Origin: an uncultured Gammaproteobacteria bacterium
Lineage (GTDB): Bacteria; Patescibacteriota; Microgenomatia; Levybacterales; UBA12049
Direction: 5' to 3'
DNA length: 64,000 nucleotides
Assembly (NCBI GenBank): GCA_964507055.1
Contig: CAZDOJ010000001.1
Location: 13,210 to 77,209 of the forward strand
Shown: piece by piece, positions 33,347 to 56,078 of the stretch
Numbering within the stretch: position 1 is the first letter of the stretch
How the letters are laid out: the number at the start of each line of letters is the position of its first letter
Program-made: the position numbers and the translations under genes
The notes under the pieces: model-generated
Told to the model about the DNA's origin: nothing
The model's database searches: none
What the model saw: only the letters and a program-made list of their open reading frames with translations

Positions 33347-33679
33347 ATGGTTGAGTCAAGAAGAAGGAGTGAACCGCCTCAAAGAAGAGGTCCATGGCAA
33401 GAGCGTGCTGGCAATATATTGCGATCGGCACGAAATAAATTTTCTGGGGATGTTGGACGCCTAGAGCAGTGCCTCGTTCCTATAAATGATCCCATAACGC
33501 CTGAACCAAAGAATGTCTCCGGTCCAAGTGGATGTCTCATCGATAATTCAGGTAAAACTTCCGAAAGAACTCCACCTCCAGATCTGGGGATATCGATTTG
33601 GGAACAACCACTATCACAGGTTTTTAATATCTTTGATGGTAGCAATGATGGCCAGAGCGGTCCCAGAAGATCTTTATAA
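33347..33679 (+). CDS. Tag-bearing island protein 5 (a small 110-aa protein with a degenerate tag).
   Basis: It ends 'NIFDGSNDGQSGPRRSL' (Trp is missing). It starts 'MVES' from the conserved 'TATAAT-N7-ATGGTTGAG' arrangement. Confidence 0.5.
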   Translation: MVESRRRSEPPQRRGPWQERAGNILRSARNKFSGDVGRLEQCLVPINDPITPEPKNVSGPSGCLIDNSGKTSERTPPPDLGISIWEQPLSQVFNIFDGSNDGQSGPRRSL

Positions 33680-33754
33680 TAGGACATACAGTTTGGTATT
33701 TATAAGTATTTGAGGCAATAGCATATTTTATATTGACATGATATACTCCCAGCT

Positions 33755-35056: not shown

Positions 35057-35115
35057 CTTCTAAATATTTCTCCTCACCTTGAAGCTGCGTACGCATAGTG
35101 TTATACTTGTCGTTT

Positions 35116-36297: not shown

Positions 36298-36347
36298 ACT
36301 ATCCCGTAGTAGCCAATTGAATTCAGATTTGTTACAATACACCGATT

Positions 36348-37661: not shown

Positions 37662-37666
37662 TATAA

Positions 37667-38845
37667 ATGAATACTCCAGAAAATCCACGATATAAAGGAC
37701 CTGATAGATCAGGGAAAGTTGAGAGAGCTCCCCATGTTGAAACACCATTTCAAGAAGCAGTGCGTTTGGCTACAGCACTACATCGTGCAGATCCGAATCG
37801 TATCTATCAAGGATTTGGGAGGTATGACGTATTTTCAGACACGCCTGGTGTTTCAGGTGTACATGAGGTGCATGTGGATCCTTTGGATGTAGATCAGAAA
37901 GGGACGCATGGGTTCGTCTTTCCTTTCGATGAAGAAGTTGAAGGAGAACAAGTTGTCGGATCTGTACGATTTTTTATCAAAGATGGGTTGATGCATGCTG
38001 ATCCTACAAAGATTTGGGAAGCAAATGCTATGCGTGCATTAGACGAGGAGTTCGGACCCGATCATGTGGATGAGTTGGGTTTTCCTGAGCAATCTGGTGC
38101 TTCAGAGAGGTTTGTTGCGGAATCTCAAGTCCTTGCATCTGTTCAAGCGGAATGGGAGAACCATTTTCAAACAGCCGCGAGTGCACTTGCCCTTGGCTCA
38201 GTTCGAGAAGTATTAAATCAGATAAAAGCCACGTATAGTGAATTGCTTCCAAAAGAATTAGGTTTTGATGATATAGATGTATCCGCTCTCGATTATGATA
38301 GCGTCATAGCTCATGTAGGTCTAGCAGCTGAACACCTTGTGATATCAACGATACATTATAGCGAATGGCACGATGGACAAAATACCTATAATCTTACAAC
38401 GGAAAAAGATAAAACTGGAGCAGTGACAGATATTAGCTTCAAACACGCACACCGAATGGCGGATGATATGGCGGTCACGCATACTATTCGTGATTGGACA
38501 TTTACTGCTGATGGAGAATATTGTGCTGGATCGTATCAACAATTAGCTCCTTTTGCGGAGTATCTTGAAGATCCTGCTCAACTCCAAATGGTTTCGGCTC
38601 ACAACAAAACGCAGATGGACGAGCGAATCCGAGAAGCAGATCTTGGTGAAGATATTGCTGACACGCTACAAATACAAGCAGGAATTGATTTGCTGAAAGA
38701 TCCAAAACATTTTAAAATTCTCCAACCAGTACTTAATAAAGGAGATGTACTTTTTCCCGAAGAAGAATCCTTAGATCAGCGGCATGAACAGATTGATTGG
38801 AGTGGAGAGGATGATCAAGATATTGGTCCACATAGATCGTTATAA
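37667..38845 (+). CDS. Tag-bearing island protein 9.
   Basis: It ends 'EQIDWSGEDDQDIGPHRSL'. The ATG lies only 5 nt after the upstream stop. Confidence 0.6.
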   Translation: MNTPENPRYKGPDRSGKVERAPHVETPFQEAVRLATALHRADPNRIYQGFGRYDVFSDTPGVSGVHEVHVDPLDVDQKGTHGFVFPFDEEVEGEQVVGSVRFFIKDGLMHADPTKIWEANAMRALDEEFGPDHVDELGFPEQSGASERFVAESQVLASVQAEWENHFQTAASALALGSVREVLNQIKATYSELLPKELGFDDIDVSALDYDSVIAHVGLAAEHLVISTIHYSEWHDGQNTYNLTTEKDKTGAVTDISFKHAHRMADDMAVTHTIRDWTFTADGEYCAGSYQQLAPFAEYLEDPAQLQMVSAHNKTQMDERIREADLGEDIADTLQIQAGIDLLKDPKHFKILQPVLNKGDVLFPEEESLDQRHEQIDWSGEDDQDIGPHRSL

Positions 38846-38846
38846 T

Positions 38847-39899
38847 ATGGTAGAAGCATACAGAAATAATAAGGAGCGTAATAAAAAACCTTTCACTATG
38901 GTACTTCTTGATCACGGTGCTGCTCGTCCTTCCGAAATAGCAGTTTGGAAAAATCATATTGTGACCCTTCTCAATAGAGATCCTTCTCATCATGGGAAAA
39001 TAGTAGTCTTCACAGAAAATGCTGCCGGCACAATCAGCAACGCTAATCGTGTGCAAAATAAAATTCGTAACGGGAAACTACCTACAAAAGCTTCCATTGA
39101 AGCAGGCCTTGAAGAGATTGCCGCAGCTGGAAGAATATTAAATGTTCCTGAAGCAGAAGCACACGCTATCGCACAAGAGGGACTTGAAGAAGGATTTGAT
39201 GGTGCAATTTTTCCCATACTTGATGATCTTCACCGGGAGCATGGAGAAAGAGTCGTTTGGATAGATGAAGCACATCCTTTATCAACGCATGAGAAAGGTA
39301 TAGCCTTCTTGGATACTGGATTTTTTATAGATCCTCCTTACGGGACGACTTCTCAATCCGAAATTGCTGATTGGTATCGTGAGAATTTTCGAAAAAACTC
39401 AGAATTTGATAGAGAGCGAGAAAATAATATAAGCCAAGCTTTGGCTGAACAGCTCGATGATCCCAATATTATTGGTGGCGTCGGGGTGATGGGATATTTC
39501 CATACCCGCGTTGTTCATAATTTGGCACGAAATGGCTATGCGGCTCGCAATGTTTTTCCAGAAAGAGAAGGAAGAAACTTTCACTTTAGTCCTAATACCT
39601 ATCTGCATAGAATGATTCATTTCTTTCCAGATCGTCAAATTACCGATGCAGATGTCCAAGATGCTTTAAGTGTAGGTCAATATACTGGGACTTTACTAAG
39701 AAGTGAAGGACGTGATCCTGCGACATTGAGTATTCAAGAAAGAAACAAAGTAGGCAATGAAATTTTGCATATCAGAGGGAAAGCACGTCAACGAGAGCTT
39801 CAGATATTTGATTCATCAGAAGCACTTGGAGATCATAATGATGAAATTGATTGGGCTGGGAATGATGAGCCTGATGAGGGACCTAAAAGGTCTCTTTAA
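38847..39899 (+). CDS. Tag-bearing island protein 10 (family A, 'VVFTENA'/'GWVGAxHTG' family).
   Basis: It ends 'DEIDWAGNDEPDEGPKRSL'. The start was set at the 'ATGGTAGAA' (MVEA...) conserved among family starts, 1 nt after the upstream stop (TAAtATG). The family motifs 'KKPFTMVLLDHG', 'GKIVVFTENAAG' and 'GGVGVMGYFHTRVVHNLARNGY' are present. Confidence 0.6.
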   Translation: MVEAYRNNKERNKKPFTMVLLDHGAARPSEIAVWKNHIVTLLNRDPSHHGKIVVFTENAAGTISNANRVQNKIRNGKLPTKASIEAGLEEIAAAGRILNVPEAEAHAIAQEGLEEGFDGAIFPILDDLHREHGERVVWIDEAHPLSTHEKGIAFLDTGFFIDPPYGTTSQSEIADWYRENFRKNSEFDRERENNISQALAEQLDDPNIIGGVGVMGYFHTRVVHNLARNGYAARNVFPEREGRNFHFSPNTYLHRMIHFFPDRQITDADVQDALSVGQYTGTLLRSEGRDPATLSIQERNKVGNEILHIRGKARQRELQIFDSSEALGDHNDEIDWAGNDEPDEGPKRSL

Positions 39900-39960
39900 T
39901 GGCCTATAATAGTTTTATTTTTAATCATTTCATGGTATAATCCCAAAAGACAAGCCATCC

Positions 39961-41019
39961 TTGTCCCATTTTTTTATGAATAATATTGAAGGTGCTCCCA
40001 AGAAAAGAGTAGAACATCGTGAGGTGGATCCACGAAAAAAACCTATTGATCTTTTCTTTTTACCTCATCATGAGGATATGTATCACGTGCTTGATCCATG
40101 GGAAGAAAAAATACGTAATACACTCGCAGAAAAACCTACCGGCAAACTTGTTGTTTTTACAGAACTAGCAACTGGACGAAGAGATATGAGCGATCGTGTA
40201 CGTGGGCTTGTATCCAATGGTGTTTCTCCCAGTGACGCATATGCACAAGCAATAATATCACGGTTGCGTGAAGCTGGAGATGACGGTACAGATAGTGAAC
40301 TTGAAAATATTGCGTTACGAAGTCTCTCTGGATTTGTAGGAGAATCATCCATGAGACTTGACGGAATTGTCCGTGATTTTCCTGGAAGGATAGACTGGAT
40401 AATTGAAGGTCGTCGCGATGATCAAGAATTACCTGAAGATGACGAAGATGTAAAGGCTGCGTACACATTTCTGACGACAAGAGTTGATGGAGTTCCTAGT
40501 GACGACCATATTGATATTTATCGAGAATCACTTGCAACAATTTCCCATAGCGATCGTGTGCGGGATCGGTATATCGCGGAGCAAATTGCAGAGACACTTG
40601 AAAATCCTGATACTATTGGTGTTGCTGGGTGGGTGGGCACCAAACACACAGCAATCAGTCATAAATTAAAAGCAGACGGCTATACAATTAATCGAACATT
40701 TCCACAGTTAGAGGATGGAGTATTGGTATTTGCACCGATAACAACTCTTATACGAGAAGCCGAGTATCATCCAAGGAGAGAAATTCCCAAAGAAGATATT
40801 ATCGTGACAACCGCTCTTGCCAACCCAGTTTTTGATTTCGATCCGAATGCATCCGATCAGCAATTTTTTAAGAATGCACATACATGGATGACAGAGAAAA
40901 AAGCAGAACTCACGTTACAAGAAGAGCTTGGCAGTGATCAACCATTATCAGAAATTGATCCGTCCGTTAACTGGGATGGGACAGAGGATCCTGATTCCGG
41001 TCCACGTCAGAGCCTTTAA
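39961..41019 (+). CDS. Tag-bearing island protein 11 (family A).
   Basis: It ends 'PSVNWDGTEDPDSGPRQSL'. It has 'RKKPIDLFFLPHH', 'GKLVVFTELA' and 'GVAGWVGTKHTAISHKLKADGY'. Confidence 0.65.
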   Translation: MSHFFMNNIEGAPKKRVEHREVDPRKKPIDLFFLPHHEDMYHVLDPWEEKIRNTLAEKPTGKLVVFTELATGRRDMSDRVRGLVSNGVSPSDAYAQAIISRLREAGDDGTDSELENIALRSLSGFVGESSMRLDGIVRDFPGRIDWIIEGRRDDQELPEDDEDVKAAYTFLTTRVDGVPSDDHIDIYRESLATISHSDRVRDRYIAEQIAETLENPDTIGVAGWVGTKHTAISHKLKADGYTINRTFPQLEDGVLVFAPITTLIREAEYHPRREIPKEDIIVTTALANPVFDFDPNASDQQFFKNAHTWMTEKKAELTLQEELGSDQPLSEIDPSVNWDGTEDPDSGPRQSL

Positions 41020-41054
41020 TTGCTTTTTGTGCCCAATTTGTTACAATACCGCCT

Positions 41055-42089
41055 ATGTCACACTTTGAAAGAGAACCTATAAAAAGAACAGAACGACTTG
41101 ATCCAAGGCAGAAGCCGACGACACTTTTTTTTATCAACCATAATGAGGCTGATCATACGCCACTTGTACCTTGGAAAAATCACCTTGAAAACCGTTTGCA
41201 GGACTTACCGAAAGGGAAAAAGATTGCGGTATTCACTGAAAGTGTTATCACAAGTACTGAAGTCGCTCAAGCCACGCAGGAACGAGTTGCCGATGGTATG
41301 AGTCCAACTGAAGCATATGTACATTCTGTATATGATCAATTGCTTCCAGGTATGCCACGCACTGACAAAACTCTGGAGCTTGTACATGATCATGTCCGAG
41401 CTCAGAATTCTTTTATAGCAGCATCTCGGGATATACTTGATGAATTAGCCCAACGCTATCCCGGAATCCATTGGATTGAAGAATCACATGATGCAACAGA
41501 GCGTGACCGTATCGTAGAGAGTGCAAAAGATTTTTTTACCATGCTTGATGTTCGAACTGATCCTCAAAGCCAAACATTGGATGAAAAAAAAGAGGTGATA
41601 GAGAATTTTGGAGCAAGGCAGCAGATGCGTGATCAAAGCATTGCAGGACTTATTACTGGAGCACTTGAAGAAGATGATGTTGTAGAAAGTATTGGTTGGG
41701 TTGGAGCGGATCATACAGGTATTTCTCATGCTTTAGTGCGAGATGGATATACAGCAAATAGAGTCTTCCCACATAGGCAAGGAGGGACCTTCTATTTTGA
41801 ACCATTAACTACATTGTGGAAAACGGCAAACATTCGAGAACTTACCGATGAAGAAGTAGAAGTATCACTTCAAGCAGACCGAAACCTCGCAGTTCCATTG
41901 AGTGTTGGAAGACAAGCTGATATTCAAGCCGCACATCGGATGATTAAAGTAGCAACCCAGCTGAGACAGCGAAGTAATCAAAGGCAAGAACCACCATCAA
42001 TAGATTCAAGTGAAACTTCTTTGCCTCAAACTGCTATTGACTGGGCTAGTGAAGAAGAAGGTCCCACAGAACCACGAAGAACTTTATAG
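41055..42089 (+). CDS. Tag-bearing island protein 12 (family A).
   Basis: It ends 'TAIDWASEEEGPTEPRRTL'. It has 'RQKPTTLFFINHN', 'KKIAVFTESV' and 'SIGWVGADHTGISHALVRDGY'. A 'TGTTACAAT' box lies 7 nt before the ATG. Confidence 0.65.
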   Translation: MSHFEREPIKRTERLDPRQKPTTLFFINHNEADHTPLVPWKNHLENRLQDLPKGKKIAVFTESVITSTEVAQATQERVADGMSPTEAYVHSVYDQLLPGMPRTDKTLELVHDHVRAQNSFIAASRDILDELAQRYPGIHWIEESHDATERDRIVESAKDFFTMLDVRTDPQSQTLDEKKEVIENFGARQQMRDQSIAGLITGALEEDDVVESIGWVGADHTGISHALVRDGYTANRVFPHRQGGTFYFEPLTTLWKTANIRELTDEEVEVSLQADRNLAVPLSVGRQADIQAAHRMIKVATQLRQRSNQRQEPPSIDSSETSLPQTAIDWASEEEGPTEPRRTL

Positions 42090-42116
42090 TCAAAATGAAT
42101 TTGGTATAATCCCCAC

Positions 42117-43289
42117 ATGGTAGAACATGTTGATTCCTCTCGAACCGGAAAAAAACCACGCAAACCTTTTACACAATTTCTTGTCTCTCATAGTGACGAT
42201 AAACTTGATCAGCTCTCTGGATGGGCTAATGCACTTCAGCGATCGCTTGAAGAAAATCCAGATAAGAAAGTTGTAGTTTTTACAGAAAATGCTAAGGGAG
42301 TTAAAGCAGATTCAGAAAAACTAACAGAAAAGGTTCTGGAAGGTATGCTGCCATCTGATGCATATGCTGCTGTAGCAACAGAAAATATGAGTTCATACTT
42401 TGCAAAGAATAGTACTCGTGTAGGTGTTACAAGACAACGTCGGATTATTAAAAAAGAGGCAGAAAAAGCTAGAGATCAGATTGGAGGAGGATTTTTTGGT
42501 AGATCATTTCAACTTCTTGATGCTATTGCAGCTGAATATCCGGGCAGAATAGTATTCATAAGTGAATGGGAACCAGAGCTCGCAAATCAATTAGATACAC
42601 AACAGAAAACTCGAGAATTAGGTATCGGTTTTCGAAGAGAATTGGGATTGCAGACTCGGGCTGAAAAAGCTGCTTCTGCACGAGAGTTCTTTCTATTCCA
42701 GGCAGATAATGCAAATGCCAGAGAAGAGTCTGCTGCACAAGTTCTGACGGATGCCTTAGACCGCGATGACGTTGCTGCAGGAGTTGGCTGGATGGGAGCC
42801 GCACATACTGGACTTGTACATCGATTGCAGGCAAATCATGATGTACGCATGATTATGCCAGGAAAGGTTGGAAGAGATTTTGTATATACGCCTGAGAATG
42901 CACTTATTCGTGAACGACTATTTCATCCGGATCGTGATATTGATTTGGATGAAGCATACGAGGCTGTACAGATAGAAAGAAGAGTAAGAAGACAGTATCC
43001 AATTTTCCATTTGGGGATTGTTTTAGAAAGTAAATGGGGTATAAATCCATTTCATAATAAGCAGAGAAAAGCTGAAATTGATCAAGAAATTAGTAGAAGA
43101 GCTCAGGTTGAATTCCAAGCTTTTCGAGCAGGCCGAAATGAGTATGCCCAAGATCAAAACACAATAGTAGCTCTTCCCAATGCATCAGCGATTGTACAAG
43201 ACAATGAAGTGTCACTAAGAGATATGAACTCTGGTCTTGATTGGGATGGTTCAGACGGTCCAGATCAAGATTATCGAAAAACATTGTAA
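42117..43289 (+). CDS. Tag-bearing island protein 13 (family A).
   Basis: It ends 'SGLDWDGSDGPDQDYRKTL'. It has 'KKPRKPFTQFLVSHSD', 'KKVVVFTENA' and 'GVGWMGAAHTGLVHRLQANHD'. A 'TGGTATAAT' box lies 6 nt before 'ATGGTAGAA'. Confidence 0.65.
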   Translation: MVEHVDSSRTGKKPRKPFTQFLVSHSDDKLDQLSGWANALQRSLEENPDKKVVVFTENAKGVKADSEKLTEKVLEGMLPSDAYAAVATENMSSYFAKNSTRVGVTRQRRIIKKEAEKARDQIGGGFFGRSFQLLDAIAAEYPGRIVFISEWEPELANQLDTQQKTRELGIGFRRELGLQTRAEKAASAREFFLFQADNANAREESAAQVLTDALDRDDVAAGVGWMGAAHTGLVHRLQANHDVRMIMPGKVGRDFVYTPENALIRERLFHPDRDIDLDEAYEAVQIERRVRRQYPIFHLGIVLESKWGINPFHNKQRKAEIDQEISRRAQVEFQAFRAGRNEYAQDQNTIVALPNASAIVQDNEVSLRDMNSGLDWDGSDGPDQDYRKTL

Positions 43290-43319
43290 TTATTATTTAA
43301 AAAGAATATAATCCCGTCA

Positions 43320-44513
43320 ATGACTGAACGATCTGCAAAATCACCTGCTCAGGTGGAAGGGGCCGTGGCTCCAGATGGCAAGAAAAAACCTGTTTCCCTT
43401 TTCTTTGTTTCGCATCATCCTGCACAAGGATACCAGCTCGACGGATGGAGAAGAAAGATAGAAGATATCCTTGATTCTACTCCAAAAGGAAAAGTTGTAG
43501 TTTTTACAGAGAATGCTGGGCAAAGCCATAGGCATTCCAATCTTACTCGACAAAATGTTGCTAATGGTGATCTACCATCAGATGCCGTTGAAAAAAGTTT
43601 CCGAGAACTAAATGATCATTATCGAAGTCATGGGGTTGAATGGGCCTTGAGTGATGAGAGAGTAGCAGAACTTCTTGAGAAAGGAACAAAAACATTTACT
43701 GGCATATCGACAGCTATACTTGATGATATTGCTGCTCGTTATCCTGGAAGAATAGATCTCGTTGAGGAATGGGAAAGTCGCAAAGGACATCAACTTGAAC
43801 ATGATCTCTACAAAAAGGATACTCCTCAGCGAAATACAACCCTAAGTGCTGTTATGTCTTTATTTCCTCAAGGACGTAGAATTTTGGCTGCTGAGGGTCG
43901 AGAAAAATTGGCATCCGAAGCTGCAATATACCGTGAACGTGAGGAAACATCTGCACGAATTATTAGTGATGCATTAGAACAACCCGATACTATTGCGGCG
44001 GTTGGCTGGATGGGTGCAATACATACTGGACTGAGCCATGAGCTCACTCGAGAGGGTCATCCAGTAATGCGTGTATTTCCAGAGCGAGTAGATGGAGAGC
44101 CATATCTTTTTCCGCCAGGACATACGCTCCTTCGTGCCAAGCGTTTTGATCCGGATAAAGAATTAACTGATGATGAGATCGTAACGGCTGAGCAGGCTGA
44201 TCTGAAGGGAATGCATAAACAATTTGGTGATCCACGGATCAATCCAATTGGTTTTTTTATGCGGTATAAGTCTCAAAAAGAAGAAGTACGCTCAGGAAAA
44301 GCACAGGCTTCTATTCGATATGCTCAAGAATGGTATAGACGAAAAATGGGCAAACAGGCATCAAATGAAGAGCAAGTAAGTACAAATAGACAACTTCAAG
44401 AATCAGTTACGGTTGCCCCAGATATAGCAGAGCCCCCACTTGGCGATCTGAATTCCGATATAGATTGGGGAGAGTCTGGACCCGATGCAAATGGACCAAA
44501 ACGGTCACTCTAA
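43320..44513 (+). CDS. Tag-bearing island protein 14 (family A).
   Basis: It ends 'SDIDWGESGPDANGPKRSL'. It has 'KKKPVSLFFVSHH', 'GKVVVFTENA' and 'AVGWMGAIHTGLSHELTREGH'. Confidence 0.65.
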   Translation: MTERSAKSPAQVEGAVAPDGKKKPVSLFFVSHHPAQGYQLDGWRRKIEDILDSTPKGKVVVFTENAGQSHRHSNLTRQNVANGDLPSDAVEKSFRELNDHYRSHGVEWALSDERVAELLEKGTKTFTGISTAILDDIAARYPGRIDLVEEWESRKGHQLEHDLYKKDTPQRNTTLSAVMSLFPQGRRILAAEGREKLASEAAIYREREETSARIISDALEQPDTIAAVGWMGAIHTGLSHELTREGHPVMRVFPERVDGEPYLFPPGHTLLRAKRFDPDKELTDDEIVTAEQADLKGMHKQFGDPRINPIGFFMRYKSQKEEVRSGKAQASIRYAQEWYRRKMGKQASNEEQVSTNRQLQESVTVAPDIAEPPLGDLNSDIDWGESGPDANGPKRSL

Positions 44514-44556
44514 GCCTGTAATAGTTAAATAGTATATTTTTTGTTATAATCCTTCG

Positions 44557-46401
44557 ATGGTAGAACAATCAAGAAGAATTGCACCACAGGGAAGTCGTAC
44601 TTTTCGTGGTACAGATGTGTCCGCAATGCATGCAGAAATGCAAGGTATCCTTACGGCTTCGAGAGATAATGATCCGCATGCCTCCACAATAGACTCATAT
44701 AGAAAGATTGCTGATGCACTTCCTCTACGGGTTCCAGCTGCTACATACCAAGCCGTTAGTGAATCTATCAATAATCCTGATCCCGTGATTTCAAAAGCTG
44801 GGAAGGAAGTTTTTACTTGGCTAAATATAAAGACTGTAATTTCAGTTGCAGAAAGATATTCGGGAGAAGGTTTGGGAGATGTTGAAGATTTCGCTCAGGA
44901 AGGGGTTACTATCCTTTATGAAAATGTAGACACAATTCATCAGAGGGCAGATAGTTCTATGTATACTTATCGTTTGGCTGAAGAGGCTCTGACTAATAGT
45001 ATTGCTCGTGAGCATGGATTTAGTGTTACTATGAGCGAAAATAGAGTTGCATTACCTATTGGTCAGACCGTGACTGAATTATTTGATAATGCTCCCTTAG
45101 GGGTTGATGAAGTAGGGCTTGAAAGGCAAGCAGTAGTATTAGCACAGAAATTTGGAATTACTGAAGATGCTGCATTTAAATATCTCTCAAGGAGGAGTGC
45201 ATTGCAGCCAATTCACGAAAGTAAGATGCAGCCAGAACGTGAGGATACAGAGGTAATAGAAGATATTATGGTTTTAGATGAGCTTCTGAGGATGCTTCCT
45301 GAAAGGAATGAACAAATGCTGCGGATGAGATTTGGGAATGGTTTTACACTAGATGAAATTGCCCAACGCTACAACCTGGTTCCTGAACGTGCTCGTCAAA
45401 TAATTGCTAAAACAATTAAATCATTACAGCATGAGCAAGTTATCGATTTTGTTACAGGGGGAGTTAAACCCGCATCTCGAAGTCAGCGAATAATGACATC
45501 AGATGGAGAAGAGGGGCAGGATATTGAAGATGTCATCCGCGAAAAGCGTTTGGCTGGATATGGTGAATCTGGATCAGGTTCGTGGGCTGAATCTAGAAAG
45601 GAATTGGCTAATATTGCACATGCATTCTTAGCTGAGCCGCAAATTGGGTATCCGGAAATTGCAAATAGGCTTGGAATTACAGTAGATAAAGTAATTTATA
45701 GTGTACAAACTCTTCGTTCAAAATATTTGTTACCAGATGCTAATGCAGGTAAGCATGCAAAAATAACTCCCGATGATGGCAACAGAACATTGCAGGAAAG
45801 ACTACATTCACGATATGAAAGACAAGAATCCGAGATTGTAGTTCCGCCAATTCAGGGGGAAAGAGAAACAAGTACTATCCCAGCAATTGAGGACACTTCT
45901 TCTAAATCGAAACCACCATCAGAAAGAACACTTCGTGCTTTAATTTTGCAAAAACAAGCGTGGAAGTTACAGCAAGAAGACGGAAAAACGTACGATGAGA
46001 TTTCTGAAATACTCAATGTTAGTCTAGGATCCATACGAAGATATCTTCAAAACGAACGGCGAGACCTTGGTCTTGCAAATCAGACGAATGTCGGACGTCC
46101 TAAAGATCCTGAGGTGCAAGCTAGAAGAGCCGTTTTGGCTGAGAGAATTAAAGCTGGTGAGCCTCTTAGAGTTCATGGATTTGCTAAAGAGTTTGGTACT
46201 ACTGTAGGTACTATAAATTTTGATATACGTGAAATTTTGAGTGGATATCATACTTCTTCATCAGAGACAACAATATTTTCTCAAGAAGAACATGCTTCGC
46301 AACAGCCTAAACTTGAGGAGCCAGAGGTTACGATCGCTGATGTAGCTGTCGATTGGGATGGTACCGATGATCCTGAAGCAGGTCCTCAACGAACTTTATA
46401 A
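44557..46401 (+). CDS. Tag-bearing island protein 15. It is a sigma-70-family-like protein (regions 2 and 4) with a roughly 330-aa C-terminal extension that contains an extra HTH.
   Basis: The region-2-like segment is 'ISVAERYSGEGLGDVEDFAQEGVTILYENVDTIH...SMYTYRLAEEALTNSIAR'. The region-4-like segment is 'LDELLRMLPERNEQMLRMRFGNGFTLDEIAQRYNLVPERARQIIAKTIKSL'. The extra HTH is 'KTYDEISEILNVSLGSIRRYL'. It ends 'VAVDWDGTDDPEAGPQRTL'. A 'TGTTATAAT' box lies 6 nt before 'ATGGTAGAA'. Confidence 0.65.
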   Translation: MVEQSRRIAPQGSRTFRGTDVSAMHAEMQGILTASRDNDPHASTIDSYRKIADALPLRVPAATYQAVSESINNPDPVISKAGKEVFTWLNIKTVISVAERYSGEGLGDVEDFAQEGVTILYENVDTIHQRADSSMYTYRLAEEALTNSIAREHGFSVTMSENRVALPIGQTVTELFDNAPLGVDEVGLERQAVVLAQKFGITEDAAFKYLSRRSALQPIHESKMQPEREDTEVIEDIMVLDELLRMLPERNEQMLRMRFGNGFTLDEIAQRYNLVPERARQIIAKTIKSLQHEQVIDFVTGGVKPASRSQRIMTSDGEEGQDIEDVIREKRLAGYGESGSGSWAESRKELANIAHAFLAEPQIGYPEIANRLGITVDKVIYSVQTLRSKYLLPDANAGKHAKITPDDGNRTLQERLHSRYERQESEIVVPPIQGERETSTIPAIEDTSSKSKPPSERTLRALILQKQAWKLQQEDGKTYDEISEILNVSLGSIRRYLQNERRDLGLANQTNVGRPKDPEVQARRAVLAERIKAGEPLRVHGFAKEFGTTVGTINFDIREILSGYHTSSSETTIFSQEEHASQQPKLEEPEVTIADVAVDWDGTDDPEAGPQRTL

Positions 46402-46442
46402 TTTATCTTTCCGCCTCATCCTATGGTATAATCTTGCCCAAT

Positions 46443-48695
46443 ATGATTGAACGGAGACCTCAAATGAAATCGGCAGTCTTTACCGGAGATGTTGATGGCA
46501 TTGATCCTTATGGTACATTGGCAGAATATGTAAAAGTTATTGATACTGTGGCTGCGATTCGCACTCCAGAAGATCGTATTCAGGCAAGACATGTATTACG
46601 TCGGATGATTATTGGATTTCCTCCTCACATTTCTCCCGCAGCTTTCATTAAAAATGAACATGCAGAGCTTGCTCTTACAGATGAAGAGCGAAGGATACAA
46701 GAACAAGATACAATTGATAGAAAAGCCAAACAAGAAGCAATTGATGCAGATATTGCTTCAGGTACATATCCTTGGCAAGCACATGCACGGCATAATGAAG
46801 AAAGCAGAGTCAATACACATCTCATTGGGTTTTACGGAGATGAAGCTTTACAACCACTCTATGGACCTCCTTATTTTGAATCAACTCACGGACAAAAAGA
46901 AGTCCATTTAATACATTTGGATATCAAGCCAGTTGAGGGAGAAGTGCGAAAGAGTGCACATTGGGATGCGTTACCAGAAGATCTTCGAGAACAGTTTGAG
47001 GGAGGATCAATCCCAATCACCGGAACGACTGACCTTTATGCATTAACAGATGAGGAATTAGACAACCTTGCAGTGTCCGAAGATCCATTCAAAATGCAAA
47101 AGCATATAAAAAAGAAACTTGCTCAAGCGGATGATGGATATTATGTTTTGTATTATAGTGATTTCCGCAATCCAGGAGGGAGAACTGGTGTCCTCATGCA
47201 ATCAAGGGATGGAGATATGCAACCTGTGACCACGAAAATTGGTGATGATGAATTTCTCATTGAAGCCAAATCGATAGGGACAAAATATGGTGGATTTGGA
47301 GGAAAGCATCGTCGTCAAAGTGGAAATGATGTCATTACGGGTGGGGGGACTGCTAGAGAATCCGTACGTGAAATTGAGCGCTTGGAAGAGACTGAATTTC
47401 ATGATGGTCCTCAACCAGTTGGTGCTATAACATTTCGCAACGAGGAAGGTGAAGATCAAGGTGTACTGCTTCGACTTACACCGTCAACTGTTCGTGCTGC
47501 TTTTACTATGCCAGATGCATATCCGAAAATTGATTCCCCTGATATTGCAAAGCGGGTTTTCGATATGTATACACAATTATTGGCTGATCAAACGCTTGGA
47601 GAAAATCCTTATATTATAGGTGCTCAATCTTCACATACGGAAAATATCCTCATTTGGAAAGATACGTATGGCTATACAGACTCAGCAGATAAAGCAGCTT
47701 TTCATGATGGTTCAGTGGTGAGTTATGAGAAGGACTTCAAGTTGCGTACGCCTAAAGAGTTTCTCATAGAATACATTGGGCTCGTAGGATATATTCCTGG
47801 AAGGAGCAAGGTAGAAAAACAATACTTTATTGATGGGCTTACTCGAGCTTTTGCCTCTCATGGCAAAAATATTGACCTCCATCCTGAAGATTATGATTTT
47901 GAGATTGCCGAAAAGCTTTGGGCAGAAGGGGGAATTGCATATTCTGTATTTAAGGCTAGAAGAGAACGAGGATTTGTGGCAGATGGAGTACTTAAAGATT
48001 TTACTGATTATGCTGCAAAGGTGAGAGATATATTTGGCGAAAAAGCAATGGGTTCTGAAGAATCATTTAAGCAGAGGATGGAAGATATGGTTGCAACTGT
48101 GAAGAAACAGCTTCTTGAGAAAAGAAATAAAACCAGTGACATTGACGCCCAAAGAGAAATCAATAGTATATTAGCAGAACTCGGAGGAAATAATTTTTTG
48201 AATGGAAGTAATGGATATGATCTCATTTCGAATACGTTTTCACAAAATCATGGAGAAACACAGGAAGATAATGAGCTTATTCAAAACGCTGAAGATATTA
48301 AGACGATACAACAGCTATTTTTCATACATGAATTATATTTCGATCATGAAAGTGATGTAGTATCTGGTGCGTTGAAAAGTTGCCCTGAAGAAGAACGTGA
48401 AAATGTTGAAGATGCAAAAGCGGAGGTTGGTCGAAAACTAGATGAAGCATTTATACTTCGCACGCCAGAAGGACTTTATCGAGCTCTAACAGATGCGGAA
48501 TATGTGCGAGAGTTGATAACAATGGAGGTATATTCACAAGGCTCAGAATTATCTACAGATATTGAAGCTCATCCCGAACAAGTGATCTTCGATCCACGAC
48601 AATATGGATCATCGACTGAGTTTTTTTTAGCTGATGCCCAGATAGACTGGGCTGGAATAGAAGATCCTGATCCTGGATCACAACGAACGCTTTAG
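46443..48695 (+). CDS. Tag-bearing island protein 16 (753-aa hypothetical).
   Basis: It ends 'AQIDWAGIEDPDPGSQRTL'. The ORF track starts at an upstream TTG, so the ATG at 46443 was chosen, 10 nt after 'TGGTATAAT'. Confidence 0.6.
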   Translation: MIERRPQMKSAVFTGDVDGIDPYGTLAEYVKVIDTVAAIRTPEDRIQARHVLRRMIIGFPPHISPAAFIKNEHAELALTDEERRIQEQDTIDRKAKQEAIDADIASGTYPWQAHARHNEESRVNTHLIGFYGDEALQPLYGPPYFESTHGQKEVHLIHLDIKPVEGEVRKSAHWDALPEDLREQFEGGSIPITGTTDLYALTDEELDNLAVSEDPFKMQKHIKKKLAQADDGYYVLYYSDFRNPGGRTGVLMQSRDGDMQPVTTKIGDDEFLIEAKSIGTKYGGFGGKHRRQSGNDVITGGGTARESVREIERLEETEFHDGPQPVGAITFRNEEGEDQGVLLRLTPSTVRAAFTMPDAYPKIDSPDIAKRVFDMYTQLLADQTLGENPYIIGAQSSHTENILIWKDTYGYTDSADKAAFHDGSVVSYEKDFKLRTPKEFLIEYIGLVGYIPGRSKVEKQYFIDGLTRAFASHGKNIDLHPEDYDFEIAEKLWAEGGIAYSVFKARRERGFVADGVLKDFTDYAAKVRDIFGEKAMGSEESFKQRMEDMVATVKKQLLEKRNKTSDIDAQREINSILAELGGNNFLNGSNGYDLISNTFSQNHGETQEDNELIQNAEDIKTIQQLFFIHELYFDHESDVVSGALKSCPEEERENVEDAKAEVGRKLDEAFILRTPEGLYRALTDAEYVRELITMEVYSQGSELSTDIEAHPEQVIFDPRQYGSSTEFFLADAQIDWAGIEDPDPGSQRTL

Positions 48696-48707
48696 AAATG
48701 TCAGGTT
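48691..48707 (+). repeat. Conserved intergenic element 'TTTAGAAATGTCAGGTT' that overlaps the stop codon.
   Basis: It recurs nearly identically at 50764-50780, and a related 'CTAGAATGTCAGGTAG' lies at about 28974-28989. It always sits directly after a tag-encoding 3' end and about 30 nt before the next -10 box. Confidence 0.5.
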
Positions 48708-48722
48708 TGTTGAGCTAAATTT

Positions 48723-48731
48723 TGCTATAAT
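48723..48731 (+). promoter_or_regulatory. Extended -10 'TGCTATAAT', 6 nt upstream of the ATG at 48738 (leaderless arrangement).
   Basis: It is representative of the island's promoters. The same arrangement occurs at 42102-42110, 44542-44550, 50796-50804 and 53562-53570 (TGnTATAAT-N6-ATG). Coordinates are approximate to +/-1 nt. Confidence 0.5.
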
Positions 48732-48737
48732 CCCCGA

Positions 48738-50768
48738 ATGAAAGAACTACTCAGAGCGAGAAAATCATTTTTGAGAGGAGAACCCCTCCGTCATAATCCT
48801 GGTGATGATGATCGGACCCAGGATAAATTTGCTAACGTACCACATGGTGGTCCCCAAAAAGAAGGAAGATTACCAGGAGAAAGAATTAGTGATCAACAGC
48901 GTGATGAGGTGCTATCCGGAGTTCTCAATAGTGAAGTAAAGATGCTCGTTTTGGCGGGAATGGTTCTGGACCCTGAAGTATACACTGCTGGAGATCTCGA
49001 TAGTATGATACGGGATATGCAACGTGGACAAAAAGGTTGGAATTTAAGTAGCAACATAGCATTCGGGTACTGTCTCAATTCTTTCGATGGGATTGGACTA
49101 GTCGCAAAAAGTGAACCTGTAAACGATCGGACGACCTTGGGATTTAAAGCAACACAAAGAGGCAAAGACACGTTACCAGTTATTGGACATCTCTTGGATT
49201 TCTCACTGAAACATCCAGATATAGCTTTGCGGCGTGTCTTTTCAACAACTGCTTCTCCTTCAAAGGCCACGGCTGAAGGCGAACAAGCTGGAGACTATAA
49301 AGTCCGTGCTCCCAAAAGACGATTTCGTATTCTTAAAGCACTCGTCGAGAACGAGGGGCCACTACGTGAGTCAGATATGCGAAAGCTTGTAAATAATTCA
49401 TCTGTTGAGTTGCATCTGGAAAGCCTTCATAACATTGGGCTTATAACTTATGAGAACACAAGAGTTGGTGCAGATCATATCACCTATACAGTTATTCCAG
49501 ATGCTATCTCTGATGTTCATGCTCTGCCTTCTATTCCAACGTCAACCGATAACCAGCTGCAATTACGTGCAGCATATATTACCTCAAAACTTTCGGGTGA
49601 AATTTCTCCAAAAGATGTATATGAACGATTAGTCGCTTTATTCCCACAATATAAAGAACGGGATCCTCGTGGTACAGAAAAGGTAATAAATAGAAAGCTC
49701 CATCACATGTCAATGCATGGATTTATAGAAAAAGGGAAACGCACAATAGACCGAAAAACAGATATCTCAGTAACTGAAGAACAGCGAGAAACTATAGCTG
49801 AGATCGTGGGAATTATTGATGCATTTCAGGCAGGAGATCCGACATTCTTAGCAGAAGGAGAACAGAAAGCTCGACGAATTATCCAAAATCCTGAGGCAGC
49901 AGCTACTCTTATGCGTAAGGCTCAGGAAAGTTCGCATACAGCTCTTGCTCTTGGTCAAGCAGAATTGAAGAGAAGATTAGTGACTTTTGCTGAACAAAGC
50001 GAAGGTCCGATAACAAGTGTGCTTGCTGCTGAATATCTGGAGCATCGTGTGGGTAAAAGTTATGCTGGTGCGATATTACGAGAACTTGCAAGAGAAGGAA
50101 AGATACAGGTTGAATCACGGGGTCAAGTTATAAGATATGGTCCTGTCGCTCCGCAGGAACAAGAGATCCCTTTGCCTGAAGATAAGCGAGGTTTAGAACA
50201 AGTTGCAGTTACGGTAAATGCGGAGATTAAGCCATTTGCTGATGGTATCAAGTTGCTTCTTGCTGCATATGCTTCACATACCGATCCTCAGTCAGAATCA
50301 GCTCTTGAAGTAATGGATCAAATTCGTTCTGTACGAGCACTGCCTGAATATGCACATCTCATTTCGAAACGTGATCAGATAGAACAACGGCTTGCTGTTA
50401 TTGCATCAGAAGAGGCTGGTATCGAGTTAGCGAATGAAGAACCCGTTGTAGAAACAGAAGTTGAGATGCAAGAAAATACGGAGGTTGTTCTGAAACCCCA
50501 AAATAGTCCAAAATCGAAGACAGTTGAGCTTCGTGAGCGAATTCAAGCCTTTAAGGATTTAGGAGTATCTGATTCTAGCGAAATTGCACAATGGATGGGT
50601 GTAAGTAGATCTACCATCACAAGACATATTCGGCAGATGCAAGCACAAGAAACACAAGAAGAACCCATACTTCCTGCAGTTGAAGATCAGCCATTAAGTG
50701 CATTAGATGCTGGGATTGATTGGAGTGGAGATGATGATCCTGATCCCGGTTTACAAAGAACACTTTAG
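48738..50768 (+). CDS. Tag-bearing island protein 17 (family C). It is a DNA-binding-like protein with a winged-helix-like segment and a C-terminal HTH.
   Basis: It ends 'AGIDWSGDDDPDPGLQRTL'. The N-terminal roughly 130 aa are paralogous to protein 18 ('...VLNSEVKMLVLAGMVLDPEVYTAGDL...GYCLNSFDGIGLVAKSE'). It has 'RRFRILKALVENEGPLRESDMRKLV' and the HTH 'SEIAQWMGVSRSTITRHIRQM'. Confidence 0.65.
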   Translation: MKELLRARKSFLRGEPLRHNPGDDDRTQDKFANVPHGGPQKEGRLPGERISDQQRDEVLSGVLNSEVKMLVLAGMVLDPEVYTAGDLDSMIRDMQRGQKGWNLSSNIAFGYCLNSFDGIGLVAKSEPVNDRTTLGFKATQRGKDTLPVIGHLLDFSLKHPDIALRRVFSTTASPSKATAEGEQAGDYKVRAPKRRFRILKALVENEGPLRESDMRKLVNNSSVELHLESLHNIGLITYENTRVGADHITYTVIPDAISDVHALPSIPTSTDNQLQLRAAYITSKLSGEISPKDVYERLVALFPQYKERDPRGTEKVINRKLHHMSMHGFIEKGKRTIDRKTDISVTEEQRETIAEIVGIIDAFQAGDPTFLAEGEQKARRIIQNPEAAATLMRKAQESSHTALALGQAELKRRLVTFAEQSEGPITSVLAAEYLEHRVGKSYAGAILRELAREGKIQVESRGQVIRYGPVAPQEQEIPLPEDKRGLEQVAVTVNAEIKPFADGIKLLLAAYASHTDPQSESALEVMDQIRSVRALPEYAHLISKRDQIEQRLAVIASEEAGIELANEEPVVETEVEMQENTEVVLKPQNSPKSKTVELRERIQAFKDLGVSDSSEIAQWMGVSRSTITRHIRQMQAQETQEEPILPAVEDQPLSALDAGIDWSGDDDPDPGLQRTL

Positions 50769-50810
50769 AAATGTCAGGTTCACTACAATGAAGTTTGTTA
50801 TAATCCCCAA

Positions 50811-53528
50811 ATGAAAGAACGATTTCGAGAAAGACGTATACAAAGGGAGGTTTTACGACATCATCCTGATCCGGGCGAACAGGATAAATTTTCGCAAGGT
50901 GGAGCACATCCTGAAGTTCCTGGTGAACGGAGAGAAAGAGTATCGACACAGAAGATTGATGAACTCCTGGCAGGAGTGTTTAATAATGAATCCAAGATGA
51001 TTGTCCTTGGTGGGATGATCCTCAATCCTCACTGGTATTCAGATCAGCAGCTTCATGATATGACAATGCGGATGCAACGAGGAGAGCGAGGATGGGGCAT
51101 TGGAAATCACATTCCCTTTGGTTACTGTCAGGATTCTTTTGATGATATCGGACTTGTTGCAAAAAATGAAATCGATGGGGCTCGCGATAGTTTAAAATAT
51201 CATGTGACCCAAGATGGTATTAGTGCACTTCCTGCTATTGGTCATCTACTTTCGTTTGTTGAAGAATCAGGCATCTCTTTGCATAGAACTTTCTCAACAA
51301 CGAGTACTCCTTCTTCAGCAGCGAGTATTGATTCTGAGGAAGAACATAATGATGATCGTGACATACGAAAACGTGCACCAAAGACAAGGTATAGAATTTT
51401 TAAACAATTACTTGCTCATGAAGGACCAATACAAAAAGTTGATTTACAAGAAAATCTCAACGTGAATGGGAGTTCTCTCGGGCACCATTTAAGAAACCTC
51501 AGTATTGAAGGTATGCTTGACTATCAAAGCTATTATGATGGTGAACCACTCGCTGTTACATATCGCATCAATGCAGATGCTTTTCAAAAGATAAACTATG
51601 ATGATCTTCCACGAGATGCAAGATCAACGATTACAACGATTACGAGACGAGTTGCTTTTATTGCTGCTCATATGGAAGGGACTGTTACTCCTGCTAAAGT
51701 GCATGAAAAATTGCTTGCTCTGTATCCTCAATATGCAGAGAGAACTGAGGGTCATGTTCGAAGCAGCGTGAATCGTGCCTTAACGCATCTTGCAAAACAT
51801 GAGTATCTACAGCGAGGAGAGATCTCTGCAGATCGTCCTTCATTAATCTCTTTAACTGATGAGCAGCGAGAAAGAATGCAACAACTTGTAACGATCATCG
51901 ATACATTCCAATCAGGTGATCCCGAATTCTTAGCACAAGGTGAGCAAAAAGCCCGCGAAATTTTAAATGATCCTCAAAGAGTAGCACGATTAATGAGACA
52001 CGCACAAGAAAATTCTAGAATAGCATTAGCTTTGGGGCCTGCGGAGTTAAAACAGATGATCATCGAAATCATTAAAGATAGTGACACACCATTATCCGGA
52101 GCGAGAATTGTGCCGTTGATGGACCATCGGATTGGACAGCCGTATGCAACAGCTTTATTAAAGCAATTATATGATGGTGGTGAAATAGCCTTGGTAAGTG
52201 AAGGAAGATCAAAATGGTATGGAAAACTTCAAGAAACAGGAGGTGTTGACGCATTACCCGAAGATAGAGATGGGTTAAGATCATCACTGCAACAAGTTAC
52301 TGCTGAATTTCAGCCATACGAAAATGGCCTGGGGCTTTTATTTGCTGCTTTAGACACGCATGATCCAGCGTCAGCAGATGCCCGAGAGGTTTTAAATCAG
52401 ATTGAATATGTCCGCATGGATCCTGAATATCGAAGACTTAAAGGTAGAATCGACACTATACAAGATAGGCTGGAGAGTTTCGCTGATGAAATTGAAGATG
52501 AAGCAGTTGCGGACGAAACTCAGGTTAGAAAAAGAACACCACGCCAAAGTTCGGTCGTCATTCGCCAACGGATAGATGCTTTTAGGGATTTAGGGATTAC
52601 CAATCAAAGCGAAATTGCACGTTGGATGGGCTTCTCTCCTGATAGTTTGAAATATCATTTCCAGTCGATGGACGATACGCTTAATAGAGCAATATCTCCT
52701 GAGCGAATGGCAAAAATTGATATATCCAGAGCATTGCGTGATCAGGATCAATTAACTCCCGCACAAATTGCAGAACGGATGGGTACCACTGAGAGTACAG
52801 CTCGTGCATATCTCGAACTTGCAGATGATGCTGAAAGGCTTGCAAATCAACGCGAAGTAACTTCTCCTTATCAAGATCGCCTTGTTAGAGTCCGCGAAAT
52901 GGAAGAAGAGTGGGGTGACATGATGCAAGTTACACCGATGGTTCATCAAATGGCTGCGGAGTTAGGCCTATCTGTTGCATCGATCCATAATTATCGAAGA
53001 GAACTTTTTGCGACACGTGCTCGAGCAGCAAGAGTACGGGAAGGCCAAATAGAACAGGTCCGAGCGATGACTGAAGAGTTACAGCAGCTTCCTAACCAAG
53101 AACGTGTATTAGTGATTGCTGAAAGACTAGGATTAAATCGATCAACTGTATATCGCTTTCAAGATAAAGCATTTGGAGTTGCAGAGCAAAGAAAAGTAGG
53201 AATTGCTGAGCGACGTGCACGGGTTGCCCAGCGTTCAGAAGAGCTTCGTGCAATGGGAATCCCTATAAAAGAAGCTGCAAAAGTTATTGCTGAAGAAGAA
53301 GGTGTCTCTCCTGGGACGATAATGTTGGACAGAAGAGCTTTATTACAATCACAGCGAGAAGCCACACAAGCAGAAAATCTATCATCTTCTGTAGAAGAAA
53401 CCATTGTTTATGAGGCAGATCATAGCTTGCCTGATCTTTCGTCAGAGCAATCATTAAATACCTTCAATGAAACAATTGACTGGTCTGGTGAAGATGATCC
53501 GGATATTGGACAACACAGGACACTTTAG
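50811..53528 (+). CDS. Tag-bearing island protein 18 (family C). It is a 905-aa protein with five tandem HTH-like repeats.
   Basis: It ends 'ETIDWSGEDDPDIGQHRTL'. The repeated HTHs are 'SEIARWMGFSPDSLKYHFQSM', 'QIAERMGTTESTARAYLELA', 'QMAAELGLSVASIHNYRREL', 'VIAERLGLNRSTVYRFQDKA' and 'KVIAEEEGVSPGTIMLDRRAL'. Confidence 0.65.
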   Translation: MKERFRERRIQREVLRHHPDPGEQDKFSQGGAHPEVPGERRERVSTQKIDELLAGVFNNESKMIVLGGMILNPHWYSDQQLHDMTMRMQRGERGWGIGNHIPFGYCQDSFDDIGLVAKNEIDGARDSLKYHVTQDGISALPAIGHLLSFVEESGISLHRTFSTTSTPSSAASIDSEEEHNDDRDIRKRAPKTRYRIFKQLLAHEGPIQKVDLQENLNVNGSSLGHHLRNLSIEGMLDYQSYYDGEPLAVTYRINADAFQKINYDDLPRDARSTITTITRRVAFIAAHMEGTVTPAKVHEKLLALYPQYAERTEGHVRSSVNRALTHLAKHEYLQRGEISADRPSLISLTDEQRERMQQLVTIIDTFQSGDPEFLAQGEQKAREILNDPQRVARLMRHAQENSRIALALGPAELKQMIIEIIKDSDTPLSGARIVPLMDHRIGQPYATALLKQLYDGGEIALVSEGRSKWYGKLQETGGVDALPEDRDGLRSSLQQVTAEFQPYENGLGLLFAALDTHDPASADAREVLNQIEYVRMDPEYRRLKGRIDTIQDRLESFADEIEDEAVADETQVRKRTPRQSSVVIRQRIDAFRDLGITNQSEIARWMGFSPDSLKYHFQSMDDTLNRAISPERMAKIDISRALRDQDQLTPAQIAERMGTTESTARAYLELADDAERLANQREVTSPYQDRLVRVREMEEEWGDMMQVTPMVHQMAAELGLSVASIHNYRRELFATRARAARVREGQIEQVRAMTEELQQLPNQERVLVIAERLGLNRSTVYRFQDKAFGVAEQRKVGIAERRARVAQRSEELRAMGIPIKEAAKVIAEEEGVSPGTIMLDRRALLQSQREATQAENLSSSVEETIVYEADHSLPDLSSEQSLNTFNETIDWSGEDDPDIGQHRTL

Positions 53529-53576
53529 TAGCAGCCTGTAGTAGAATTTTGAGCCTAAATTTGGTATAATCCGCAA

Positions 53577-56027: not shown

Positions 56028-56078
56028 CTTGAATATAAGGCTAAATTCAACTATAATACCCCGATACATTAGATAACT

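Follow-up and report, generated by a model that had tools for sequence, protein, structure and literature searches.

A sigma-70-like protein with a species-specific C-terminal tag in a coupling-ATPase-linked gene island of a Patescibacteria genome

We analysed a stretch of 64,000 nucleotides (hereafter the window; positions 13,210 to 77,209 of the forward strand of contig CAZDOJ010000001.1) from the Patescibacteriota assembly GCA_964507055.1, a genome of 1.56 Mb in 7 contigs that is 97% complete. The organism is probably a member of Patescibacteria, and likely of the class Microgenomatia, as judged by the distribution of the sigma-like family described below, the genome sizes of its relatives (0.6-2.2 Mb), ProS look-alikes in Saccharimonadota and a secretion locus of the kind known from the phylum (PMC12102498). 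The subject of this work is P0001, an open reading frame (ORF) at 44557-46401 on the plus strand with its stop codon at 46399-46401, which encodes a sigma-like protein of 614 amino acids (aa) including a C-terminal tag. No long ORF competing with P0001 was seen in this interval. P0001 belongs to an island of about 56 kb (C1:37766-93043, window 24557 onward), an insertion with proS on one side and a DHH-like gene on the other, which contains about 35 tagged genes together with a coupling ATPase, P0185. Both ORFs flanking P0001 are tagged as well: the upstream one (43320-44513) is a member of a cargo family with conserved H/E/GxxH residues, and the downstream one (46434-48695) is an orphan. The coordinates of the features are collected in Table 1.

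The tag is formed by the last 21 residues of P0001 (594-614), of which VDWDGTDDPEAGPQRTL is the last 17, and its consensus is approximately [IV]DWxGxxDPDxGPx[RK][ST]L at the extreme end of the protein. A hidden Markov model (HMM) of the tag was run on 6639 ORFs, and it turned out that 35 ORFs matched at E<=0.01, all of them with the match ending no more than 3 residues from the C-terminus, while internal matches and matches in reversed ORFs both numbered zero. This agrees with the first-pass annotation, made from the letters alone, which had placed P0001 in an array of proteins sharing one tag. Looser thresholds give about 42 tagged ORFs, i.e. about 3% of the proteins of the genome. The tagged proteins form at least 25 groups unrelated by BLAST; none has a signal-peptide-like N-terminus and a membrane segment appears in one borderline case only. 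Their last 25 residues, which end in [RKQ][RK][ST]L, carry a charge of -4.6 on average. In 60 relatives, 12 of them congeners, no copy of the tag was found, and a search of databases returned proteins of this organism only; by these searches the tag is species-specific.

Several known kinds of terminal signal were considered. A sortase- or exosortase-type sorting signal was rejected, as the tag has no hydrophobic segment. A type VII (WXG100-like) signal was set aside: the tag does contain W-x-G, but the tagged proteins are large, unrelated and not 100-residue hairpins (EssC/EccC and WXG100 proteins were not searched for). The only FtsK/SpoIIIE-family protein met, during the search for VirB4 and not in a dedicated one, is a normal FtsK. 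As for an encapsulin-type cargo peptide, which is a conceivable alternative, no shell gene was recognised, but the majority of the island proteins match neither Pfam nor PHROG.

The largest tagged group has 9 members, in which H, E, E, R and GxxH are invariant; they are located at window 38850-44513, 53577-56027 and 62698-64000, and also at L011:7732-10047. The structure model of this family resembles the ChaN, erythromycin-esterase, HopBA1 and RRSP-like fold (Z 9.1, 8.3, 7.4 and 6.7, respectively), which suggests a hydrolase-type payload. Much of the cargo appears to be DNA-binding. The protein at window 27053-28978 contains a pyridine-nucleotide-disulphide oxidoreductase domain (PF13738, 40 bits) and a degenerate tag (VSWDIEAGPEDQDPPKKTL), and a giant ORF of 1882 aa outside the island (G000:C1:294821-300469, minus strand) likewise ends in the tag. 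Two tagged paralogues of 676 and 905 aa lie side by side at window 48738-53528 and contain many winged-helix or helix-turn-helix (HTH) modules; a third member is at C1:91346-93043.

Profile searches, alignment and modelling place P0001 in the sigma-70 family. It has a segment resembling region 1.2, followed by regions 2, 3 and 4 with the 3.2 linker. Sigma70_r4 (Pfam PF04545) matches residues 244-292 with 59.2 bits (cut-off 24.1), and TIGR02937, the NCBIfam model of the sigma-70 family, extends across residues 92-292 with 85.5 bits (cut-off 42.9). Sigma70_r2 (PF04542) reaches 21.2 bits on residues 92-152, slightly under its cut-off of 24, and this region is also covered by the SigA profile match, the fold model and the Foldseek matches. 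BLASTP aligns residues 90-292 with residues 140-357 of RpoD from the same genome (E 1e-9), and region 3 is counted as present because this alignment spans it. In a multiple alignment, 'YRKIADALPL' of P0001 stands opposite 'YLKEIGRIPLL' in region 1.2 of RpoD. A 30-sequence profile of the P0001 family matches solved SigA chains from region 2.1 to the C-terminal tail (E 6e-39), the AlphaFold model of residues 1-300 has a predicted local distance difference test (pLDDT) value of 86.5, and the best 50 PDB matches of this model in Foldseek are all sigma factors (50 of 50). The PHROG sigma family phrog_351 also matches P0001 (54.6 bits), while region 1.1 had no Pfam match. Behind the sigma part there is a second HTH of the region-4 type, Sigma70_r4_2 (PF08281; residues 467-503, 58.5 bits), besides HTH_24 (29 bits) and weaker Pfam HTH matches at residues 360-390. 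Regions 2 and 4 and a further HTH after them had all been read from the letters in the first-pass annotation, and they hold, with region 2 slightly sub-threshold in Pfam; region 3 and a region-1.2-like segment can now be added to them.

P0001 is one of four sigma-family genes in the genome. Neither of the two outcomes that the first-pass annotation had named as refuting its reading, namely regions 2 and 4 without HMM matches or P0001 as the sole sigma-70, was observed. The other sigma-family genes are RpoD (369 aa, L001:1108-2217, with regions 1.1, 1.2, 2, 3 and 4), an extracytoplasmic function (ECF) sigma of 177 aa, and a second tagged sigma-like protein of 933 aa (L010:3751-6552, minus strand), which is far from the main island in the C1:780460-784590 stretch, has RR in place of the tryptophan pair of region 2.3, and adjoins another tagged ORF (L010:2461-3690, minus strand). 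P0001 is not a housekeeping (group 1) RpoD, as it has no region 1.1 and the genome contains a separate full RpoD. Nor is it an ECF (group 4) sigma with a cognate anti-sigma factor, as region 3 is present and Pfam finds no anti-sigma family in the two flanking ORFs. MzaA, the sigma of the MZA anti-phage system, was rejected too: model NF041931 scores 56.9 bits, far beneath its curated 800, with the region 4 part alone aligned and no full-length match. That P0001 is an ordinary alternative sigma, whose C-terminal likeness to its neighbours has no function, is scarcely credible. It matches the sigma-70 family model, but the same terminal tag occurs on 35-42 proteins and never internally or in reversed ORFs, an extension of 320 residues is atypical for sigma factors, and the orthologues in other islands (see below) bear those islands' own tags. 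With high confidence, P0001 can be counted among the tagged members of a cargo set linked to an ATPase, and is no conventional sigma factor.

The motifs of the sigma module are unevenly preserved. The region 2.2 motif 'DFAQEG' is retained with its Q, E and G, and the recognition helix of region 4.2 reads 'PERARQIIAK' in P0001 against 'RERIRQIEAK' in RpoD, with E, R, R and Q kept. In region 2.3, the tryptophan pair is deleted, leaving a two-residue gap ('TYRL--AEEA' against 'TYATWWIRQS' in RpoD). As regards binding to core RNA polymerase and promoter-specific initiation, the features examined are sequence motifs, namely 'DFAQEG' of region 2.2, the 3.2 linker and the hydrophobic core of region 4, and core binding by P0001 would be a prediction from these. 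The suggestion in the first-pass annotation that a sigma-derived fold had been co-opted for another role is partly right, in that the pair which melts promoters is gone. Compared with SigA and RpoD (groups 1-3), the order of region 1.2-like segment, regions 2 and 3, 3.2 linker and region 4 is the same; P0001 differs in having no region 1.1, tryptophan pair or -12 contacts, in its extension of 320 residues with HTH modules and tag, and in the location of its gene in an accessory island.

To describe the family, we ran an exhaustive phmmer search, and the members found align with P0001 across residues of about 15-295, including the N-terminal extension. Many have an N-terminal superfamily 2 (SF2) helicase, and others are stand-alone proteins of about 330 aa; named members come from Candidatus Levybacteria (OGH12475.1) and Candidatus Daviesbacteria (MBI2338577.1). 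A census with the family-specific N-terminal half gave 18 carriers in 36145 genera, all of them Patescibacteriota and mostly Microgenomatia. Word-based homologue searches with P0001 brought up RpoDs at 28% identity and nothing closer. In species-representative genomes the members are untagged chromosomal genes, and the tryptophan pair is absent throughout the 30-member alignment. Unlike P0001, these relatives have no tag, are often fused to the SF2 helicase and keep a more canonical region 4. P0001 stands apart from them in a clade of island-borne tagged members: in a tree built with a quick maximum-likelihood method only, P0001, P0025 and P0032 form one clade (Shimodaira-Hasegawa approximate likelihood ratio test 99) despite their three different tags. 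P0025, from a metagenomic contig, is the closest relative of P0001. In Microgenomatia, a melting-deficient sigma-like part is found fused to an SF2 (DEAD/ResIII) helicase, for instance in P0027, P0031, P0034, G292:C16:25191-27662 and G285:C1:26220-28772, and the helicase part may supply the DNA opening. The P0001 DNA itself was met on four DNA contigs of one bioreactor-metagenome study, which may be the source sample, and in no RNA record.

Most island genes have a TGnTATAAT element 6-10 nt 5' of the start codon (window 27040-56078), so that they are probably transcribed from individual promoters as leaderless mRNAs, to judge from this spacing. The -10 hexamer upstream of P0001 ends 6 nt 5' of its ATG, and because of this distance its mRNA, too, is probably leaderless. 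In a crude scan, this layout was found for 16 of 38 island ORFs and 219 of 861 ORFs elsewhere, a modest enrichment, and it is probably a genome-wide habit. Four listed ORF starts in the array (35098, 38784, 39961 and 46434) are probably too far upstream.

The coupling ATPase P0185 lies within the island on the opposite strand. Residues of about 650-1150 form its ATPase domain, in which Walker A reads 'GPTGQGKS' and Walker B 'ALDE'; the domain is preceded by a hydrophilic N-terminal extension of 650 aa. Its nearest plasmid relatives are IncP TraG proteins (25% identity across 87% of the domain). No 19-residue window exceeds a hydropathy of 1.6 in its 1250 aa, and the same is true for a 1879-aa homologue. 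By its FtsK/HerA-type ATPase domain, its Walker motifs and its TraG/TrwB all-alpha and C-terminal regions P0185 is a coupling protein of the VirD4/TraG type, one that has no N-terminal anchor of the usual kind. P0185 was not found in 30 relatives or in 401 genomes of the class; a word-based search for homologues returned nothing, and neither did scans of genome, metagenome and viral contig collections with patterns of the ATPase or of the tagged-sigma alignment. When the ATPase (residues 290-1170) was modelled in complex with the C-terminal 50 residues of P0001, the score was 0.15 against a mark of 0.34, which speaks neither for nor against binding. The end of P0185 itself ('DDGPPKLGK') partly echoes 'DPDxGPxR..' of the tag, and the island ATPases may themselves dock through the tag, as such endings hint.

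A type IV secretion system (T4SS) is encoded elsewhere in the genome. Its core is found at C1:1.156-1.165 Mb, 1.1 Mb from the island, and includes three T4SS pilins, PrgI, VirB4 and an M15 wall hydrolase, which are 84-93% identical in four congeners; a second coupling-type ATPase is at C1:1.115 Mb. Two properties of T4SS substrate systems are found together in this genome, namely an element shared by 35-42 ORFs and always terminal, which would serve as the secretion signal, and a coupling protein alongside a VirB4-based channel. Given a VirD4/TraG-type ATPase and a type IV channel in one genome, the most economical reading is that the cargo would be exported through the T4SS.

Comparison with other genomes showed how variable the island site is. 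In two congeners the island is absent and about 0.9 kb separates proS from the DHH-like gene, while a third congener, G012 (ProS 94% identical), has 29.6 kb at the same site (G012:C1:38915-68439, loci L052 and L053). The G012 island encodes a HerA-type ATPase of 1290 aa on the minus strand and at least 13 ORFs whose common N-terminal tag has two parts, '[RG][ST]F' close to residue 22 and 'R[RK][IV]VS' close to residue 40; one of these ORFs is a sigma-like protein of 457 aa. The metagenomic contig of P0025 (44.5 kb) is almost wholly a tagged array, in which at least 20 ORFs end in '[FY]x[RK]YG..PE[IV][DE]E'; it encodes at least 6 sigma-like proteins, several HTH proteins and the anchorless coupling ATPase homologue of 1879 aa (L037:4225-9864, minus strand). 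A third C-terminal tag is found on the metagenomic contig of P0032. The recurring unit is an ATPase of the FtsK/HerA superfamily with an array of unrelated soluble proteins that carry one terminal tag. The islands have cargo families in common while their tags differ; the H/E/GxxH family, for example, is shared at E 3e-11. Tag and ATPase change together and the cargo families persist, as would be expected if the one were a recognition signal and the other its receptor, and we consider it fairly probable that the tag is recognised by the island ATPase. Further coupling-protein matches, weak or strong, in two relatives were rejected as arrays: that in G003 is an isolated gene, and that in G266 lies beside a serine recombinase in a mobile-element-like region.

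The same hypervariable site, which is empty, of island type A or of island type B among congeners, would also suit a mobile element, in which the ATPase moves DNA with tagged pilot proteins and the sigma-like protein activates element genes in a conspecific recipient. The GC content of the island (0.41-0.43 against 0.38 for the contig) and the conjugative plasmids that carry the nearest relatives of the coupling protein point in this direction. However, a search of the whole genome for relaxases of the two main families found none, the island has no recognisable integrase, tRNA or replication gene, no related locus was found in a viral collection, and with housekeeping-type promoters on the island genes no special sigma would be needed. 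We regard establishment of a mobile element as very unlikely.

Another explanation keeps everything inside the cell: the tag would be a handle that brings proteins to the ATPase, where they would be unfolded, turned over, sequestered or built into a cytoplasmic complex. An ATPase with no membrane segment and distant from the secretion genes is compatible with this, the HerA-type ATPase and N-terminal tag of G012 show only that some ATPase of the FtsK/HerA superfamily is needed, and the ATPase on the P0025 contig bears a tag-like end. Nevertheless, three Pfam models and the TraG relatives place P0185 in a family known for substrate delivery, an accessory island of about 35 fast-diverging orphans is typical of interaction payloads and not of housekeeping turnover, and no protease gene was recognised in the island. 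An intracellular handle is unlikely, in our estimation.

The many sigma-like proteins on the P0025 contig bear on a further possibility, that P0001 has its function within the producer, as an alternative sigma or a competitor, until tag-dependent export clears it once secretion is active. FlgM, for instance, exits via the flagellar apparatus and so frees sigma-28. The RNA polymerase of the producer itself would be the best match for the sigma module, whose region 4 is near that of the organism's RpoD so that both could compete at the same promoters, the island genes use housekeeping-type -10 elements, and the untagged relatives are ordinary chromosomal genes in other Patescibacteria. Yet at least six sigma-like and several HTH proteins in one related island are many for a switch, the forty other tagged proteins of unrelated families, including the 9-member hydrolase-like family, resemble payload and not regulators, and the whole island is dispensable in congeners. 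Self-regulation coupled to export is quite unlikely on this balance. The first-pass annotation had likewise offered a tag-regulated sigma; we keep it among the alternatives, and the lack of an anti-sigma gene adjoining P0001 weighs on it.

It had also proposed a delivered transcription-reprogramming factor, and this is the reading that the context favours, through the ATPase, the lack of signal peptides, the joint change of tag and ATPase, and sigma-like cargo in four islands; export and binding to RNA polymerase remain predictions. The steps may be envisaged as follows. Each island gene would have an extended -10 promoter of the housekeeping type to itself and give rise to a leaderless mRNA, and the soluble products, which have no Sec signal, would be recognised via the tag by the anchorless VirD4/TraG-type ATPase. 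The ATPase would pass the cargo to the genus-conserved monoderm-type T4SS for export, probably into the cell on which the bacterium lives. There the sigma-like module would occupy the RNA polymerase core of the target through its region 2.2 motif, 3.2 linker and near-canonical region 4. Because the core-binding and -35-contacting parts are kept and the melting residues are lost, a module without the tryptophan pair needed for -10 melting would block the use of host sigma factors or redirect the polymerase, and the C-terminal HTH modules would supply DNA contacts. The full chain, from tag-selected export of P0001 to action on the RNA polymerase of a target cell, is put forward tentatively, at somewhat less than an even chance. 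For action on a foreign RNA polymerase, if export is granted, we find the case evenly balanced. A broader version, in which sigma-like, DNA-binding and hydrolase-like proteins are injected into a partner cell via the T4SS and the tag co-evolves with the ATPase and is swapped wholesale between species, is doubtful at present.

Among known systems, C-terminal signals read by VirD4-type coupling proteins are found in the Xanthomonas X-Tfe effectors (XVIPCD), Agrobacterium VirE2 and VirF, and Legionella Dot/Icm effectors. In these systems, as in the island, many unrelated soluble proteins have a common C-terminal element, a VirD4/TraG-family ATPase is encoded alongside, and a separate VirB4-based channel exists. 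The differences are that the tag described here is about 20 residues long, strictly terminal and acidic, with WxG at its core and basic-[ST]-L at its end, that it is specific to one species and is replaced in sister islands, once by an N-terminal one, and that the coupling ATPase is without the usual membrane anchor and has an N-terminal extension of 650 residues; translocation is a prediction for the island. Phages provide another parallel, with sigma factors and appropriation proteins such as T4 gp55 and AsiA/MotA and SPO1 gp28. In both cases a foreign sigma-like protein takes over the RNA polymerase of the cell, which for P0001 is a proposal, but the phage factor is made in the victim from injected DNA, whereas P0001 would arrive as protein, and no phage context was found for it. 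FlgM and other secreted regulators resemble P0001 as proteins of the transcription-factor class with an export signal (a putative one in P0001); FlgM, however, is an anti-sigma factor, while P0001 is sigma-like and one of about 42 tagged proteins. The presumed channel also sets the island apart from the classical T4SS, being the monoderm-type system of Patescibacteria (PMC12102498).

Several points weigh against delivery. The link of P0185 to the channel is an assumption, given that the protein is anchorless and its gene is 1.1 Mb away from virB4. The end of the 1879-aa ATPase itself resembles the tag of its island ('VLEKYD...PTIDE'), so the receptor of the tag may differ. Because the untagged chromosomal relatives share the loss of the tryptophan pair in the alignment, this loss is not an adaptation to delivery. 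If the host were an archaeon, a bacterial sigma would have no target there. Only four islands are known, three of them from unplaced or single genomes. Finally, in a cultivated Saccharibacterium the homologue of the coupling protein is noted, in a review-type study, to have been dispensable for epibiotic growth (PMC12102498).

The core T4SS genes, for their part, are required for epibiotic growth in the one cultivated Patescibacteria model, and the system is widespread with substrates unknown (PMC12102498); the literature found on the Patescibacteria T4SS and its many orphan coupling proteins describes no substrates or signals. The island offers a list of about 42 candidate substrates and a simple recognition code for this system, and four islands with four tags and shared cargo families amount to natural tag swaps. 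With a sigma-like protein in their cargo, these parasites may have a direct effect on the transcription machinery of the partner. To our knowledge, direct takeover of this kind was previously known for phages only. If the delivery model is right, P0001 would be the first protein-delivered sigma mimic and the tag the first defined substrate code for a secretion system of Patescibacteria. Should the export reading fail, a species-specific terminal tag that is linked to an ATPase and borne by about 3% of the proteins of a minimal genome is still a new organising principle in need of explanation.

Table 1. Features of the tagged island and of P0001 in the window (window coordinates)
Feature	Coordinates	Strand	Evidence
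Co-directional tagged array in the window, about 20 ORFs with their own promoter-like elements	24938..57275	+	ORFs, tag HMM
Extended -10 promoter-like element of P0001, TGTTATAAT	44542..44550	+	Direct reading
Tagged sigma-like protein P0001	44557..46401	+	ORF call, Pfam, NCBIfam
Family-specific N-terminal extension with region-1.2-like segment, residues ~20-90	44614..44826	+	30-member alignment, RpoD alignment, pLDDT ~90
Sigma region 2, residues ~90-155	44824..45021	+	Pfam, TIGR02937, RpoD alignments
Sigma region 3 and acidic disordered 3.2-type linker, residues ~157-232	45025..45252	+	RpoD alignment, SigA profile, pLDDT <50 at 220-230
Sigma region 4, residues ~233-295	45253..45441	+	PF04545, RpoD alignments
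Extra HTH modules, residues ~355-562; strongest is 467-503, region-4_2 type	45619..46242	+	Pfam
Acidic linker (563-593) and C-terminal tag (core 594-614), ending ..VDWDGTDDPEAGPQRTL	46243..46398	+	Tag HMM, tail analysis
Tagged 505-aa ORF immediately downstream of the coupling ATPase, ending ..VDFAGEDEPDQDLPKTL; no Pfam family	57280..58797	-	ORF list, tag HMM
VirD4/TraG-type coupling ATPase P0185, 1250 aa	58799..62551	-	PF02534 (101.8 bits), PF12696, PF10412; hydropathy; TraG alignment
Start of another protein of the 9-member H/E/GxxH family; tag beyond the window end	62698..64000	+	ORF list, tag HMM

Two minor observations concern other parts of the assembly. Contigs C5, C6 and C7 are 3-7 kb long with a GC content of 0.55-0.63, against 0.38-0.42 elsewhere, and are possible assembly contaminants. 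Besides, window 12556-13407 (minus strand) encodes a membrane-anchored Hint/intein-like protein ('CFVAGT...HN') with poly-glycine flanks, located beside a VWA-domain protein and unrelated to the tagged island.

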